From Hydrolagus colliei (Eukaryota): a stretch of 64,000 nt of DNA. The position numbers and the translations under genes were made by a program. The notes under the pieces are model-generated. The model did not search any database and was not told where the DNA came from. It saw only the letters and a list, made by a program, of their open reading frames with translations. Position 1 is the stretch's first letter. The number at the start of each line of letters is the position of its first letter. The DNA lies in contig CM068771.1 of the NCBI GenBank assembly GCA_035084275.1, forward strand, positions 1,178,001 through 1,242,000, read 5' to 3'. Shown piece after piece: positions 7,770-41,645 of this stretch.

Positions 7770-7859
7770 GACCATGTGGCCTAATGGATAAGGCGTCTGA
7801 CTTTGGACAACTTGTCTAAAGCCATCAGAACATTGCAGGTTCGAGGCCTGCCATGATCT
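7770..7859 (+). pseudogene. Intron-containing tRNA-Arg-body gene with anticodon changed to TTG; probable pseudogene
   Basis: Paralog of 18871-18959; anticodon TTG at 7803-7805, 17-nt intron 7807-7823, B-box GGTTCGAGGCC, acceptor-stem mismatch. Confidence 0.8.
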
Positions 7860-8843: not shown

Positions 8844-9190
8844 GGAGCTCCTGTGGCTCAGTGGTTAGAGCACTTGTCTTGCAAGCTGGGGAGACCAAGC
8901 TGGGGAGACCTGTGTTCGAATCCAGGCAGGTCAGGGCGAAACCTTGGGCAAGTTTCCTTACCCCACATGCCTAATAATAATCCCTCCAAAAAAATCACAA
9001 TAATAAAATTGGTCATTTCAATCCACAATTGTGTGTGGGACACTGCTGTGCGCAATTGGCTGCCACGATTCACCCATAAAATATATACAGTCAATTCACT
9101 TTACAGTATATTCTGTGAAGCGCTTTGGGACGTTGATAAAATGTGTAAAGCGCTATATCAAATACAAGGATTATTATTATTATTATTATT
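8844..9190 (+). mobile_element. Full-length tRNA-derived SINE (young subfamily)
   Basis: A box TGGCTCAGTGG, B box GTTCGAATCC, core, (TTA)n tail; highly similar to 31069-31418. Confidence 0.9.
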
Positions 9191-9392
9191 ACTTATAGAG
9201 CGCCTTTCACATCGAGAGGACGTCCCAAGGTGCTAAACATAAAGGACAATATACAAATCTAAACTGTTGTCAGCATAGAGTTGGTATAAAATTGCCAATA
9301 GTAGCGATTGCATGCTGAAAAGGGTTTAATTTAGAAATTAACTGTTGGTAGTTTTTTCTTTAATACAAGAGGAAACACTGAACTATACAAGA

Positions 9393-9465
9393 ACTGAAAT
9401 AGCTCAGTTGGGAGAGCGTTAGACTGAAGATCTAAAGGTCCCTGGTTCAATCCTGGGTTTTGGCA
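9393..9465 (+). tRNA. tRNA-Phe-GAA: tRNA-Phe(GAA), degenerate copy (possible pseudogene)
   Basis: Matches vertebrate Phe-GAA but has G1>A and several CpG>TpG changes in the acceptor and T stems; followed by TTTTT. Confidence 0.75.
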
Positions 9466-11102: not shown

Positions 11103-11192
11103 GGCTCGTTGGTCTAGGGGTATGATTCTCGCTTTGGGGTTGCAACTAAATAAACATGCGAGAGGTCCCGGGTTCAAATCCCGGATGAGCCC
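11103..11192 (+). tRNA. tRNA-Pro-TGG: tRNA-Pro(TGG) with 18-nt intron (11139-11156)
   Basis: 72-nt vertebrate Pro body GGCTCGTTGGTCTAGGGGTATGATTCTCGCTTTGGG|TGCGAGAGGTCCCGGGTTCAAATCCCGGATGAGCCC split after G37. Confidence 0.9.
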
Positions 11193-13298
11193 AAAATGTA
11201 GACAAATGTTGCCTATGTATCTCGCTTGATTGTGTTTTGAAAAAGTAAACTTTTGTTGTGAGTCAACATAGTAACTAACAAATTCAAATGGGGTAATAGG
11301 CATCTGGTACAGCATCAGTGGTAGAGAGGTAGCATGCAAGATTACTATTGTTTTGAGCTAGGTTTGGATTTGGGCGATTGCTCAATATAGTGGAGTTCCT
11401 GTAGCTCAATGGTTAGAGCAGTTGCCTTAAAAGCGTGAGACCTGTGTTTGAATCAGGCAGCTCTTGGGCAAATTTCCTTATTCCACATGCCTAATAATAA
11501 TCCATCAGAGAGTTGTTGAGATTCAGGGTATACGGACTTAAACCTCAGTCTGCAATGTTATGCTGGATGAGATGAGGACTACCAGCAGATGAGGTGAAGC
11601 TGAGTGACATCTTGGAGTACGGTCAGAGCAACTCACCATGGTAGGGAGATACCGGGGCATGGCGAAGTTTGAACGTAAGTGTATGAACCTTGAAATTGAT
11701 CCCTTATACAACAGGTAGTGAATGGAGCCTTGCCTCCGACTCCGACTTCTTCAAGGATCAACTGAAGATCTTTGACTCTTTGAACGTGTCTTTGGCCATC
11801 TTCCTACTCAACCCTCACCTAGTCCACCATCCTCAATCATTCCCCAATCCCCGACCCACGATCAGGTCAAAATCCCTTACATTCCAACATCTTAGGATGA
11901 CCCTGACATAAAAGTAGCTGTACAAATATGGTGTTGTGTTTTCTCCATGAAACAATCGATCATAAGAAGAGGTGCTGTACAGTGTACGTTGATGATTTTC
12001 TTTTTCATCAGAACACCCATCATCTCCTTGTTTTCTCCAGGTTGCTTATGATAGTGGACCATTCCATCTTCCTTGATCTCTTTACTTTCCTCTGTGGCAC
12101 ATAACCTTATTGGAGTCATGTAGCTCGATGGCTAGAGCACTCGCCTCACGGGCAAGAGATCTGGGTTTGATTCCTGGTAGGGCAAAACGTTTGGAAAGCT
12201 TCATTATTCAACAAGCCTGACAATCATCAAAATGGCCTGCAAAGATGTGCTAAAACCAACAACAAACAGTAGCAGTAAAATGACATTATAAATTGGCTTT
12301 CACGTCTGTGGGATGTCCTGGGTGAAAGGAAGACTTTGAGAGAATTTGGTTGAAAGATACAAGGAGTATTAGTCACTAATCTTGGGTTCATGGATGACAA
12401 AAACTTCAGCCTGGACACTGCAATGAGAAGGGATTCAGGAGACACTGATGATACCCATCCCTCATTAAGGGCAGCCAGGTCTCAATGCAGGTAGTGATGG
12501 TCAACTAGTGGCCCTATCTGGACAAGCAGTGGGAAAGTTTGCTGGACAGAAAACTATGCGGTTTTAGATGGTAAGTGTGCAGCAGTTACTCCAACACATG
12601 ACAGGTTCCCCAAGCCTTAACTCTTGCCAAACTGTGCTGAATACTTCCGAAAGTGGGTAAGCAGAATGCATCCCCACAGGGAGCGAGTATGCATTCCTAT
12701 GTATGTAGCGCAGGCTCTTGATGCATTGAGGCACCAACGGGTACAGCAAAGGAATTTCCTCTGACCTATTTGTAAATTTCAGCATCAAGCCATCAGGTGA
12801 ATTTGCAGCATAAATGGGAAGTGACTGCACAGAAGAGTAAGGTGCAGGTTGAACAGAACCAAGACATGGGGCTCTTGAGTGTGCATTGGCATAACTGTTG
12901 TACTTTACCAGCTTCAACTGCAGAGCTAGTCATTGAATATAATGCTGCACAATTTCATTTCGATAAGTCGATGTGTTATAGCTTTGTTGTGCTTGAGAGA
13001 ATCCAAGTGGGAATAAGCGCTGATGCCATTGACTGGACCAATTGGCCATTTCCTGCCGTTGAGCCATTCTGGCAGGTCTGTCAATCACTGGGTCCTGGGG
13101 TCTGTCTCAGGAGGAAAACAAGCAAGTTAGTCACAGAGTCACAGTTTGATTCTCTGGTTTCATTGCTAAGCAACAACCGTGAAACCAGCTCAGCTCCCAG
13201 AAGATTGTGTTACCCCAGGAGAGTAGTGCTTAGTTTACTAGAAACAATATCTGCGCAGTTCTGGTTGATTAGACTGTTGGGATTTCTCTCTTTTAGTG

Positions 13299-18870: not shown

Positions 18871-18959
18871 GACCATGTGGCCTAATGGATAAGGCGTCTG
18901 ACTTCGGTAAAACATGTAAAGCCATCAGAAGATTGCAGGTTCGAGTCCTGCCATGGTCT
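18871..18959 (+). tRNA. tRNA-Arg-TCG: tRNA-Arg(TCG) with 16-nt intron (18908-18923)
   Basis: Perfect acceptor stem GACCATG/CATGGTC, A box TGGCCTAATGG, anticodon TCG 18904-18906, B box GGTTCGAGTCC, T5 terminator near 18971. Confidence 0.9.
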
Positions 18960-20049
18960 CAGAGAGATACTTTTTCTATGAAGTTAGCATATTGTAAATC
19001 AGTCACCTGTATTTGTCTCTGACATATGTGTTGCCGTTCAAACAATTATCTAGTTTGTGGTGCTGGTCACACCAATGTTGCCATTCCCTTGGGCTAATAT
19101 TGCCATTGTCAATGCTTATCTCCTCCTTGTAGACACCATGTTTGCTCGTTAAATGTGAGTATGCTTCCCCTTTTAAAATATTGGAGGAAGTTCTCGATTC
19201 ATACGTTTCTGAAGTCATAATATGACCGAAGTGACAGCAAGTTTTCACGCAAAATTGTAAATCATGACTAGGTTAATCTGTCTCCTATAGGCTCTAATCT
19301 CTATGTTCTAACCCTTCCACCTTTACAAATTATGAGAAACAAATAAGTGAGGAGTCGTAGTTATATCCATGTTATAATAGTTAAGGGAATAAATGATAAA
19401 TGGATATATACATAATATATACATGGATATATACATAAGAAATGAATAAAGGCAGAATGCATTTGGGTAGAAATATAAGAGGGTGGAAGGAATAACAACA
19501 AAATGTCATTGATAGGCACCTTTCACATCAGCAGGATGTCCCAAGGCACTGATCATGAGATGGGGCAGCGAAGGATAGTGGGAGGATGGCTGAAGGCTTG
19601 ATGGTTGGATAATGCCTTGGACCACCCTACCCACCTTAGGGTTTTGGCTCTCCGTGTTAATAATATTAATAAGAATCCTTATTTTTCATATACACTTTAT
19701 TATGACTGGAATCCTGGTTGCCCTGTTTGGTGGTCTGATTCCCAAGCTGGATGTGGCTCCAAGACACTGCCCACTAAGAGCTTCTTTGCCAGTTTTGGAA
19801 GCTCTAAAACACTAATCTATCAATGCATCATTATGATATGAATCTTTCAATTTGATATTGCACCTTATCATGTCTTTGAGACATCTCAAAACACCACAAA
19901 AATATACTGTAAAGTGAATTGACTATATTGTATGGGAGAATCGTAACACCGAATTGCATGTAGCAGTGTCTTACAAACAGTCGTGGATTGAAATGACCAA
20001 TTTTTATTATTGCCCTCTCTGCTCTCATCTGAAAAATGAAACCCAGTAC

Positions 20050-21440
20050 TTGCTCTCTTGACTACATCCCTACCTCTTTCATCATCTCTCAGCTCCATCT
20101 CCCAGCCACATCCTAACTGACATTATCAACCTTCCCTAACCTCTGGCATTGATCCCATCACTCTAAAAACAGCTGTCATTACTCATATCTTGAAAAAACC
20201 TTTGCTGGAACTATCCCAGCTCAATCTCCATGGACCTGCCGACACCTGGTTCAACTCATATCTTTCTCATCACCTCCACTTTGTTGTCACCAACAGCTTC
20301 TCTTCCAGCCCCTGCACGGTCACCTGGGATGTCCCTCAGATCTCTGTCTTTGGCACGCTACTTTTTAACATCGACATATTCCCTCTTGGTGACATCATCC
20401 ACAGATATGGGGTTAACATCCACATGTATGCAGATGACACCCAACTCTCTCTTTCTGCCTCTCCCCTCAATTCCATGACTACTATTGTCCTGATAGATTG
20501 CCTGTCAAACATCAAATCCTGGAAGAGAGCTAACTTTCTACAGTTGATTGTCAACAAGGTAGAGGCCCACCTGATTGGCTTGAGCCAGCACCTTCACTCA
20601 TCAGGCGCTGGCAGCATCAACCTCCATGGTTGCACATTCAACGTCACCAAGCCAGTCAGGAACCTAGGTAAACTGTCTTTCCTCCCCACATCCAAGCAAT
20701 GATCCGCTCTGCCTTCCCTCTCCAACGCACTATTGCCCGACTGCCATTACCTTACCCACAAGGTCCCTGAAACCCTCATTCATGCCTTCATTACATCCTG
20801 GCTCGACTACACAAACACCCTGCTTGTTGGCCTTCCCAATTCTTCCCTCCACAGGTTGTAATCCAGAACTCTGCAGCCCGTGTCCTCTACCACTCCAATC
20901 TTTGTGACCCCTTCTCCCCCATCCTTGCCCGACTCCATCGACTCCGCATCATGCAGAGGATCCAATTCAAAATCCTGGTCCTCACATCCAAAGCCCTCCA
21001 TGGCTTCATCCCACCCTACATCGGCCTCCCATTCCCTTCTGCTCAGCAAATTCCAGTTTACTCTATATCCCCTGACCCACCCGCTCCACCATTAGCAGGC
21101 AAGCCTTCAGCCACTCTGCCCCAACCTCTGGAACTCCATTCCACAGTCCCTCTGCCCCACCCACTCCCCGACCTCCTTCACGTCCCTCCTGAAGATGCTC
21201 CTCTTCAACAACAACAACAACAATTTACATTTATATTTACATTTATATAGAGCCTTTCACGTCGGGAGGACGTCCCAAGGCGCTAGTTTTGGTGCCATCG
21301 GTCACCACAAATCGCCTCCTTTCCCTCCACCCTCCCCGTCCCCAACTCATGTCTGTTATAATGACTGTCCAGCACCATGGGACGTCCTCCTGACTTGAAA
21401 GGCGCTATACAACTGTAATTTTGTTGCTTTTGTTGTTGAA
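20050..21440 (+). mobile_element. L2 LINE fragments (RT and 3' end)
   Basis: ORF 20190 contains 'WFNSYLS', 'VPQISVFG.LLFNI', 'HMYADDTQL'; L2 tail 'aaggcgctatac...(ttg)n' ends near 21438. Confidence 0.8.
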
Positions 21441-21462
21441 ACTCTTTCCACAATCTGCACAT

Positions 21463-22553
21463 TTACGTAGTACTAAGGATTACGTGTAGTAATCGATGGT
21501 GTCTCTGGAGATGCCCTGGCTGCGTGAAACTCCTTCCACATTCACCACAAGTATAAGGTTTCTCCCCTGTGTGTGATCGATGATGTCTCTGCAGGTCCCC
21601 TTTACTTCTGAAACTCTTTCCACATTGAGCACATGCATACGGTTTTTCTCCCGTGTGTGATCGGTAATGTCTTGGGAGGCTTCCTGAATGTCTGAATGTC
21701 TTTCCACATTCGGTACATTTATACGGTCTCTCTCCTGCGTGTGATCGTTGGTGTGTCTTGAGGATCCATAAACGTGTGAAACTCTTGCCACATTCAGCAC
21801 ATTTATGCCGTCTCTCTCCTGTGTGTGATCGATGGTGTTTCCTCAGGTCCCCTGACTGTATAAAACTCTTTCCACATTCAGCACAATGATATGGTCTCTC
21901 ACCTGTGTGTAACCTCCGGTGTCTCTGAAGGTCACTTGATGTTGCAAAGCTCTTTTCACATTCAGCACATGTATGTGATTTCTCTCCCGTGTGTAATCGA
22001 TGGTGTCTCTTGAGGTAATCTGATGCAGCAAAACTCTTTCCACATTCGGCACATTTATATGGTCTTTCTCCTGTATGTAATCGTTTGTGTATCTGGAACA
22101 TTCCTGAATGTGTGTATCCTTTTCCACAATCAACACATCGATACGGTCGCTCTGCTGTGTGTGATTGCTGATGTTTCTGGAGATGCCCTGATTGAGAAAA
22201 ACTCCTCCCACATTCTGCACATTTATATGGTCTCTCTCCTGTGTGTATTCGCTGGTGCCTTTGGAGAAACTTTAAATGTTTGAATCTCTTTCCACATTGG
22301 GCACATTCATATGGTCTCTCTCCTGAGATCGATCGCTGGCGACTCTGCAGAGATGTTGTTTGCGTAAATCTCTTTTCCACAACAGATCCATGACACTTTA
22401 TCTGCTGAGAAGAATCATTTCCCTTAGCAGCAGATTGTGTTGCTGATGTGTTTCGATGAAGATTGGGATACCTTCTGCTGTGCTTCTGATGGATCGAGGC
22501 ATGAGTAAATACAACATTACAATGAGGGCGAGGGTGAGAAATAGAATCATCCA
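21463..22553 (-). CDS. Terminal exon of PRDM9-like (PR/SET-less) C2H2 zinc-finger gene; 10 C2H2 fingers
   Basis: Acceptor tttcttttctccccaaag|TG (phase 1); degenerate finger HPRPHCNVVFTHASIHQKH, spacer, then 10 CxxC-x12-H fingers with TGE(R/K)P-type linkers. Confidence 0.9.
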
Positions 22554-31068: not shown

Positions 31069-31418
31069 GAGCTCCTGTGGCTCAGTGGTTAGAGCACTTG
31101 TCTTGCAAGCTGGGGAAACCAAGCTGGGGAGACCTGTGTTCGAATCCAGGCCGGTCAGGGCGAAACCTTGGGCAAGTTTCCTTACTCCACACGCCTAATA
31201 ATAATCCCTCCAAAAAAACACAATAATAAAATTGGTCATTTCAATCCACGACTGTGTGTGGGACACTGCTGTGCGCAATTGGCTGCCGCGATTCGCCGAC
31301 AAATATATACAGTGAATTCACTTTACAGTATATTCTGTGAAGCGCTTTGGGACGTTGATAAGATGTGGAAAGCGCTATATGAAATGCAAGGATTATTATT
31401 ATATTATTATTATTATTA
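31069..31418 (+). mobile_element. Full-length tRNA-derived SINE (young subfamily)
   Basis: Near copy of 8844-9190 including the internal 14-bp duplication. Confidence 0.9.
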
Positions 31419-31789
31419 CAATTGTATTTCGCCTTTCACGTTGGGACGATGTCCCAAGGCGCTGGTCAGTCAGTCGCCTGCCTGGTAATCAAACCCATTC
31501 CTCTGACTTGCGAGGGCGAGTCATCTCACCCCCAGCATCCAAATAGCAACTCATATGTCCCCTCGCAGGATCTCACACTTCTTTCTCAAGACTGAGAATA
31601 AATTGGGCTGTGGGAGGCTGCGCTGAAGGTGTCCATCTCTCCCTCTCTCTGCAAAACTGCTGCTCAAGTTCACCAGCAACTTGAGCAGGTGGGGCTACAA
31701 CTCTATTTCTCTACAAAAAAAATTACCAGAGACTGAGGCAGGAAAACTGCTGACATTTAATTCTGTTACAAGGTGAGGCAGAGTGAAAC

Positions 31790-33740: not shown

Positions 33741-34058
33741 TCATAATAATAATAATCCTTGCATTTGATATAGCGCCTTTCACATCTTCTAAACGTCTCA
33801 AAGCGCTTCACAGAATATACTGCAGAGAGAATTGACTGTATATCTGTGGGGGAAACGCGGCAGCCATTTGTGCACAGCAGCGTCTCACAAACAGTCGTGG
33901 ATTGAAATGACCAATTTATTATTATGTATTTCTTTGGAGGGATTATTATTATTATTATAGGCGTGTGGAGTAAGAACATTGGCCCGGACCTGCCTGGATT
34001 CGAAAACAGGTCTCACACTTGTAAGGCGAGTGCTCTAACCACTGAGCTACAGGACTCC
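33741..34058 (-). mobile_element. Full-length tRNA-derived SINE
   Basis: Reverse-complement head GGAGTCCTGTAGCTCAGTGGTTAGAGC...GTTTTCGAATCC, core and (TTA)n tail. Confidence 0.88.
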
Positions 34059-34533: not shown

Positions 34534-34599
34534 GACCATGTGGCCTAATGGTTAAGGTGACTGACTTCCGAGAACTTGTTGACGCCATCAGAAGATTGC
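34534..34599 (+). pseudogene. 3'-truncated intron-containing tRNA-Arg pseudogene
   Basis: GACCATGTGGCCTAATGG...CTTCCG[intron ending GCC]ATCAGAAGATTGC, then cut by an L2 fragment; upstream flank homologous to the 18871 copy. Confidence 0.8.
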
Positions 34600-35061
34600 T
34601 ACTGTGACCAAAGGCGCGGTCGAAGAGAAAGGTCTTCAGCTGTGATCTGAAACTGGGAAAAGAGGGGGCGAGCTGAAGGGAGTGACAAAGGGACTTCTAG
34701 AGCCTTGGGGCATAGTGGCTGAAGGCATGGCCCCCGAGGGTGGAGTGGAGAATTTAGGGGACATGGAGGAGGTCAGACCCGGTGGAGCGAATCCAGCGGG
34801 TGCTGGTTTTGGGGAGAGGGGAGATCAGAGAGGTAGGAGGGTGCAAAGGAGTGGAGGGACTTGAAAACAAGGGTGAGGATCTTGAAGTCGATAAATCTTG
34901 ACTGTTGAGTGACTCGGGATGATCTCTTCAAGTGAAAAGACGCTATTCATATGTAATTTTGTTGTAGTTGTTGTCCTTGTATTCAAAAGGTAATCAAAGA
35001 ATCAAAGAAAATGTTGGGAGTTTTTTTTTGAAAATCAGAGGAAACGCCCAATTATACAAAA

Positions 35062-35134
35062 GCCGAAATAGCTCAGTTGGGAGAGCGTTAGACTGAAGAT
35101 CTAAAGGTCCCTGGTTCAATCCCGGGTTTCGGCA
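35062..35134 (+). tRNA. tRNA-Phe-GAA: tRNA-Phe(GAA), intact
   Basis: GCCGAAATAGCTCAGTTGGGAGAGCGTTAGACTGAAGATCTAAAGGTCCCTGGTTCAATCCCGGGTTTCGGCA; full cloverleaf. Confidence 0.97.
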
Positions 35135-35395: not shown

Positions 35396-35487
35396 GGCTC
35401 GTTGGTCTAGGGGTATGATTCTCGCTTAGGGCGTTAGCAACTGAAGGAACATGCGAGAGGTCCCGGGTTCAAATCCCGGATGAGCCC
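35396..35487 (+). tRNA. tRNA-Pro-AGG: tRNA-Pro(AGG) with 20-nt intron (35432-35451)
   Basis: Same 72-nt Pro body as 11103, anticodon AGG 35428-35430, split after G37; TTTT at 35491. Confidence 0.9.
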
Positions 35488-41039: not shown

Positions 41040-41645
41040 ACAACAGCCCTATGCCCTGCTCCACACTTATATTACCTCTCGGCTGGACTATTCCAATGGC
41101 CTCCTCATCGGTCTCCCCTCCTCCACAAGCCACAGAGTTCAGTTCATTCAGAACATTGCCGCCCGGGATCTCACCCGCACCAATCTTTGCTCCCCCATTA
41201 CCTCAGTCCTCGACAGGCTTCACTGGTTCCCTATCCCAGAGAGAATCAACTTAAAAACTCTCACCCTTGTCGTCAAATCCCTCCACACCTCTGCACTCCC
41301 CTACCTCTCTGACCTCTTCTCTCCTTAAACCAGCACCCGCTGGTCTGCCTTCGCTCCTCTGGGTCTGGCCTCCTCCAGGTCCCCCGAATCCTCCACCCCA
41401 CCCTCGGCGGCCATGAATTCAGCCACTATGCCCCGAGTCTCTTCAATTTCCTTTGTGAATAACTTCGCCTCACCCACTCTCTTCTCAGTTTCAGGTCCCA
41501 GCTGAAGACCTTTCACTTTGACCGTGCCTTTGGTCACCTTTCTACCTCTGCCCCTGGCTCTGTCCCAGATTCCGCTATTGCGAAGCACTCTGAGACGCCG
41601 TCTGGCTTGTAGGGCGCAATATAAACGAATGTTGTTGTTGTTGTT
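41040..41645 (+). mobile_element. L2 LINE 3' end inserted in g3 intron
   Basis: L2 C-terminal block and (TTG)n tail; absent at the homologous spot of the g4 intron (about 48945). Confidence 0.75.

Follow-up and report, generated by a model that had tools for sequence, protein, structure and literature searches.

The tRNA families described as being spliced in metazoans by TSEN, the tRNA splicing endonuclease, are Tyr-GUA, Ile-UAU, Leu-CAA and Arg-UCU (PMC10275265; bioRxiv 10.1101/2025.06.17.660180), and a 2025 preprint describes introns as essentially absent from other metazoan tRNAs (bioRxiv 10.1101/2025.06.17.660180). Eukaryotic tRNA introns are defined by insertion between positions 37 and 38 and by a pair between C32 or U32 and the antepenultimate intron base, position -3 (PMC10275265). 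Cleavage by TSEN is reported to be guided by the mature tRNA body together with the 32:-3 pair (PMC10275265; PMC10485636). Unpairing of the antepenultimate base blocked splicing in fly and human cells. C-G and G-C pairs were spliced best, U-A pairs less well and U-G pairs hardly, and a mismatch was not spliced (PMC6614914). Mammalian tRNA-Arg(UCU) is described as having four intron-bearing genes and one brain-specific intronless gene (PMC10485636). In yeast, introns are found in Lys-UUU and Pro-UGG (PMC6582322). Lineage-restricted intron gains have been described for Lachancea tRNA-Ala(UGC) and Kluyveromyces tRNA-Gly(UCC), where spread among gene copies was ascribed to gene conversion; the same source describes tRNA families as tending to be all-or-none for introns and the way introns are gained as an open question (PMC4090602). 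The elephant shark has already been run through tRNAscan-SE (PMC8450103), so raw predictions may exist, perhaps unremarked in GtRNAdb. No Arg-TCG, Lys-TTT or Pro introns were found reported for vertebrates or cartilaginous fish in a literature search of mainly open-access article texts.

The window analysed was a 64-kb stretch (G000:C38:1178001-1242000) of a 1.0 Gb assembly of 532 contigs. It contains a tRNA-Arg(TCG) gene on the plus strand at 18871-18959. This gene and its neighbours, with positions counted from the start of the window, are as follows.

7770-7859, plus strand: degenerate Arg paralog with anticodon TTG, a 17-nt intron (7807-7823) and one acceptor mismatch
9393-9465, plus strand: tRNA-Phe(GAA), intronless, with an acceptor mismatch, in the duplicated Arg-Phe-Pro cassette
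11103-11192, plus strand: tRNA-Pro(TGG) with an 18-nt intron (11139-11156) and A(-3) opposite U32
18871-18907, plus strand: 5' exon of tRNA-Arg(TCG), positions 1-37, with the A box at about 18878-18889, C32 at 18902, the anticodon at 18904-18906 and G37 at 18907
18908-18923, plus strand: 16-nt intron at the canonical 37/38 site, with the 3' end AAAGCC and G(-3) at 18921 opposite C32
18924-18959, plus strand: 3' exon of tRNA-Arg(TCG), positions 38-73, with the B box at about 18939-18947 and T73 at 18959
18971-18975, plus strand: T5 run, a likely RNA polymerase III terminator
34534-34603, plus strand: broken Arg paralog with anticodon TCC, a 16-nt intron (34571-34586) and the T arm cut off
34604-34892, no strand assigned: repeat of ~290 nt inside the T arm of the paralog at 34534, 81% like 41245-41537 on the opposite strand
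35062-35134, plus strand: tRNA-Phe(GAA), intronless and intact, in the second cassette copy
35396-35487, plus strand: tRNA-Pro(AGG) with a 20-nt intron (35432-35451) and A(-3) opposite U32

The gene at 18871 scored 62.7 bits against Rfam RF00005. Removal of 18908-18923 left a 73-nt cloverleaf in which all 21 stem pairs were Watson-Crick (7/7, 4/4, 5/5 and 5/5), in agreement with the original prediction of an intact cloverleaf with a 16-nt intron after G37. The A box was present, the B box was intact and the T5 run lay 11 nt downstream. By sequence the intron and exon could pair as C32:G(-3), then U33:A and U34:A, with a 3-nt bulge at the 3' splice site. The gene carried what is expected of a canonical TSEN-type intron, namely a single 37/38 insert, a possible N32:-3 pair and an intact mature body. 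The anticodon TCG on an Arg-UCG-type body placed it outside the four known metazoan intron families. The claim that this was a non-standard intron-bearing isotype with an anticodon-intron pair is supported.

We consider the gene to be, with a probability of roughly 0.8, an intact and selectively kept tRNA-Arg(UCG) whose 37/38 insert is likely spliced by TSEN, and to be one member of a set of Arg-UCG, Lys-UUU and Pro-NGG genes with introns that extends across the genome, not the product of a local gain. Following established tRNA biology, RNA polymerase III would use the internal A and B boxes to transcribe the gene as far as the T5 run, and RNase P and RNase Z would trim the ends of the pre-tRNA. 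Recognition by TSEN would involve the mature body as well as the C32:G(-3) pair and its 3-nt bulge, and both sites would be cut. The exons would be joined by RTCB and CCA would then be added. ArgRS would charge the product via A20, C35 and G36 despite U73, and the mature tRNA-Arg(UCG) would read CGA.

The weak point of a functional tRNA-Arg(UCG) reading is U73. A/G73 is listed for Arg identity (PMC9976931), and the gene has T73. The T discriminator had been flagged beforehand as unusual for Arg and this was correct: among the 79 fully paired metagenome Arg-TCG genes listed, 64 had G73, 15 had A73 and none had U73. The gene could instead be transcribed, and maybe spliced, and make a poor Arg acceptor because of U73 or a competing fold. 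It would then be kept for a chromatin boundary, a fragment or the intron RNA, with CGA served by the intronless gene L068 and a second, A73-bearing subfamily (both described below). Damage in seven of the eight C38-type copies seen, the 18871 locus being the only intact one, would suit such a role. So would the minimum-energy fold of the gene, which placed the intron end on G36-G37 at 2.5 kcal/mol below the canonical register and gave a P(32:-3) of 0.06. A control Arg-TCT gene scored lower still at 0.02, however, and the competing fold therefore weighs little against the canonical pair. Against a poor acceptor, selection spans the whole exon set, acceptor and anticodon arms included. The Arg identity elements A20, C35 and G36 were all present; Arg identity in mammals and plants is described as resting mainly on A20 and C35, and N73 as dispensable for the ArgRS of yeast (PMC9976931). 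This alternative is considered unlikely.

Maintenance of the 18871 copy was examined by aligning nine copies together with flanks of 90 nt (upstream) and 160 nt (downstream). For each of five C38 copies, a change was scored as private when it departed from the majority state of the remaining four. At the 18871 locus, private changes numbered 0/67 for the exons and 25/218 for the flanks (one-sided Fisher p=0.0009), which singles it out as the copy that has been maintained within the C38 subfamily, with purifying selection on its exons. The four C38 siblings had exon counts of 4/70, 6/72, 7/69 and 5/66 (p=0.56, 0.72, 0.18 and 0.03, respectively), and in the first three no shortage of exon changes was evident. 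The intron count for the 18871 locus, 7/15, is in part an alignment artefact; by eye, its intron carried one base more than that of L008 and two substitutions relative to it. The body was identical to that of a subfamily with 14-nt introns at 69 of 73 positions, and two of the four differences were a compensating change of pair 6-67.

The conservation of exons relative to flanks also bears on whether the locus is a pseudogene or repeat head in which a chance anticodon-loop insertion was carried along in segmental duplications. Breakage of the two window paralogs and of most C38 copies, and the plentiful tRNA-derived SINEs of the genome, would fit such an origin. It is nevertheless very unlikely, given this conservation and the presence of the insert exactly at 37/38 in three isotypes. 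The copy number of Arg-TCG-type genes was low, tens at most (40/53 candidates scored; 32 all-Arg matches), and similarity among the copies spanned both flanks, a pattern that fits segmental duplicates but does not fit a SINE. The window does contain SINE heads, but these differ in sequence from the 18871 gene. The concern raised with the original prediction, that these loci might be heads of a high-copy SINE, was ruled out on these grounds.

The Arg paralogs at 7770 and 34534 are members of the duplicated Arg-Phe-Pro cassette. No T4 was found within 50 nt of the paralog at 7770. All three window Arg introns (7770, 18871 and 34534; 17, 16 and 16 nt) had GCC as their 3' end. This common ending had been put forward in favour of the anticodon-intron pair and was seen in every case. 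It does not stand as independent support, since the paralogs at 7770 and 34534 are broken and their GCC ends reflect shared descent. The further statement that each isotype in the window matches its own N32, with U:A in Pro and C:G in Arg, held. Elsewhere in the window, an 84-bp tandem array of about 10 copies at 21430-22381 appeared by eye to be a putative C2H2 zinc-finger array on the minus strand. tRNA-headed SINE-like repeats were located at 8845-9234, 12114-12185, 31069-31463 and 33985-34056. The repeats at 8845 and 31069 were 91% alike; both heads contain a tandem duplication of 14 nt, and this variant recurs many times in the genome.

A genome-wide census of intron-bearing isotypes, proposed with the original prediction, was carried out with exact-match patterns and all counts are lower bounds. 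A generic pattern with 257 matches was swamped by SINEs and left out of the counts. The all-Arg pattern gave 32 matches. Fourteen had anticodon TCG and 13 of these contained an intron; two with anticodon TCA were damaged and had introns; all nine with TCT had introns. Intronless matches had the anticodons ACG (1), CCG (1) and CCT (5). Intron-bearing Arg-TCG genes were found on 9 contigs by the strict pattern and on 12 by a wider pattern.

Two Arg-TCG subfamilies were distinguished. The first has 14-nt introns and A73; its genes are found within mixed tRNA cassettes, on C36, C265 and C48 and also on numerous small contigs, which may be duplicate haplotype pieces, so that the counts would overstate gene number. 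Five of its copies were fully paired with the B box intact. The second has introns of 15-18 nt and T73 and lies in the Arg-Phe-Pro cassette on C38, with L020 (C38) intermediate. The upstream flanks of the two subfamilies align. The Arg intron most likely traces, on this evidence, to one ancestral intron-bearing Arg-TCG gene that was later multiplied into both.

The mixed cassette holds about 15 isotypes (C56:130000-231529, C36:4.18-4.25 Mb and C265:2.47-2.53 Mb; L161-L170 and L194-L205). Repeated, rearranged versions of it occur on C36, C265 and numerous small contigs, and within the cassette introns were seen only in Arg-TCG, Lys-TTT and Ile-TAT. Damaged Arg-TCG-type copies with anticodon TCA, which corresponds to UGA reading, were observed at C38:340644 (L011), 374252 (L010), 293734 (L023) and 3584213 (L020). 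Given their other defects they are unlikely to be suppressors.

An intronless Arg-TCG gene, L068 (G000:C1:73265702), had a T8 terminator, a score of 67.9 bits and three acceptor G:U pairs. With such a gene present, CGA decoding need not depend on splicing, and the idea that splicing is obligatory for it was dropped. A second intronless Arg-TCG match, on C2, is a fragment. The possibility that L068 is defective through A37 was also discarded, as A37 was present in 36/88 metagenome matches. A37 and the T-loop sequence of L068 are common to the Arg-ACG genes of a cluster on C2 (96.19-96.21 Mb, L108-L110). Removal of the intron from L068 by gene conversion is conceivable.

Introns were found in two further unexpected families. 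Among Pro genes, 14/23 matches had introns (C13, C26 and C38; anticodons AGG, TGG and CGG) and 9 were intronless (C6 and C20). Three of the intron-bearing Pro genes lie far from C38, at C13:12049730, C13:12051266 and C26:6373060 (L051, L052 and L056). Their introns are unrelated, T-run terminators are present, and the -3 pair of L051 is a U32:G wobble. Because U-A and U-G pairs splice less well (PMC6614914), weaker splicing is predicted for the Pro genes. Lys-TTT had 20-nt introns at 37/38 in 22/26 matches, of at least two dissimilar sequence types, and Lys-CTT was intronless in 12/12. Intronless Lys-TTT copies were on C28, C29 and C190. The Lys-TTT intron genes were on C29, C36, C56, C57, C265, C357 and others (L133, L138, L152 and L153) and had G(-3). 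A degenerate Lys-TTT-like gene at G000:C3:27623672-27623746 had a third intron type, also with G(-3).

The four usual families, Tyr, Ile-TAT, Arg-TCT and Leu-CAA (10/10), were also intron-bearing. The Leu-CAA introns, at 30-33 nt, were the longest of the families here and occurred on C1, C21 and C28 (L222-L231), with 8/10 clustered on C28. No further intron isotype was found among 100 of 115 Ser/Leu matches listed or in the 15 matches of a Gly/Glu/Asp/His/Val/Gln pattern. A pattern with a 9-nt D-loop, for which 100 of 178 matches were listed, gave introns only in Tyr, Ile-TAT and Lys. Cys, Ala, Trp, initiator Met and Sec came into the survey only where they lay next to other matches, if at all. 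Many of these genes are labelled Gly, Val, Glu, Ala, Thr or Ser by ARAGORN, which is an annotation issue.

The proposal of a local gain of the Arg-TCG and Pro introns, within the Arg-Phe-Pro cassette, was not borne out and is hardly tenable: both isotypes do occur together in the C38 cassette and 11/14 intron-bearing Pro matches are on C38, but Arg-TCG introns lie on 12 contigs, Pro introns of unrelated sequence lie on C13 and C26, Lys-TTT, an isotype absent from the window, has introns on C29, C36 and other contigs, and the Phe of the same cassette is intronless.

The -3 base was able to pair with N32 in 22/24 Arg-TCG-type loci, the two exceptions being otherwise damaged. The pair was likewise possible in every locus retrieved for Lys-TTT (10), Pro (14), Tyr (25), Arg-TCT (9), Ile (4) and Leu (11). 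Among the distinct introns of the Arg family, conservation was 13/13 at -2 and -5 and 11/13 at -3. Neighbouring intron positions are thus equally conserved, and the Arg family alone supports the -3 pair weakly. Across families, G(-3) was found in all six C32 families, and the U32 Pro family had A in 11/12 and G in 1/12 distinct introns. The chance of this switch of -3 with N32 was about 0.013 if one lineage was counted per new isotype and 0.0005 if seven lineages were counted. Support for the predicted anticodon-intron pair comes from across families.

The body of the 18871 gene was identical to intronless Arg-TCG at 65/73 positions and to Arg-TCT at 50/73. It is of the Arg-UCG type, and an anticodon shift from an Arg-TCT gene was rejected. 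The 14-nt introns had a 5' start like Tyr and Arg-TCT introns and a 3' end like one Lys intron (8/8). Best-pair tests for an intron donor gave non-significant p values of 0.19-0.84 for Arg-TCT (0.19 and 0.28), Lys and Tyr, and one Leu-CAA comparison gave p=0.013 among 13 tests. Tyr, Lys and Leu were equal to Arg-TCT on the mean measure, and the mean-score p values, which ignore relatedness, point to no single family.

In the metagenome comparison, where 80 loci of at least 137 were listed, 87 of the 88 Arg-TCG matches listed were intronless. A strict intron pattern gave 0 matches in the metagenomes. The one intron-bearing match, on a metagenome contig (L310:285-378), was an Arg-TCG gene with a 21-nt intron, G(-3), a T8 terminator and a different body and acceptor stem. 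Arg-UCG introns therefore exist elsewhere in eukaryotes, though they are rare among the metagenome matches listed. In our own judgement, gain or spread in this lineage is somewhat favoured over retention from an older ancestor. More tentatively, the number of tRNA families spliced in cartilaginous fishes may be seven, against the four known for animals. The introns of Arg-UCG, Lys-UUU and Pro-NGG would either have been gained, by passage of the intron between neighbouring genes in mixed clusters, or represent an old jawed-vertebrate state that was lost towards mammals. The intronless copies would then free some tissues from TSEN for CGA, AAA and CCN decoding, like the brain-specific intronless Arg-UCU of mouse. 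This wider proposal is possible, with the odds against it.

As judged from sequence, Lys-TTT, Arg-TCG and Pro appear to be three new intron families beyond the four reported in animals. A vertebrate genome with three extra families, each with and without an intron, would break the fixed-four rule for animals. If true, both states in one genome would provide a vertebrate test case for tRNA intron gain, spread and loss, and the Pro genes offer natural U32:A and U32:G substrates for vertebrate TSEN. The splicing mechanism is presumably ordinary; what seems unusual is the isotype set.

Compared with the systems described to date, the Arg-TCG genes resemble the four metazoan families in having a single short 37/38 intron, a pair between N32 and the antepenultimate intron base and an intron sequence that varies among paralogs, and differ from them in isotype (Arg-UCG). 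Yeast has introns in two of the three additional isotypes (PMC6582322). Unlike in yeast, where the families are described as uniformly intron-bearing, both forms are found here (intron-bearing in 13/14 Arg-TCG, 22/26 Lys-TTT and 14/23 Pro matches). An intron-bearing majority with a lone intronless gene, here L068, is also the arrangement reported for mammalian tRNA-Arg(UCU), although the anticodon differs and a tissue split here is conjecture. As in the gains described for Lachancea and Kluyveromyces, a canonical intron is present in an isotype that is intronless in relatives; in contrast to those gains, the present case concerns a vertebrate and three isotypes, with both states within one genome.
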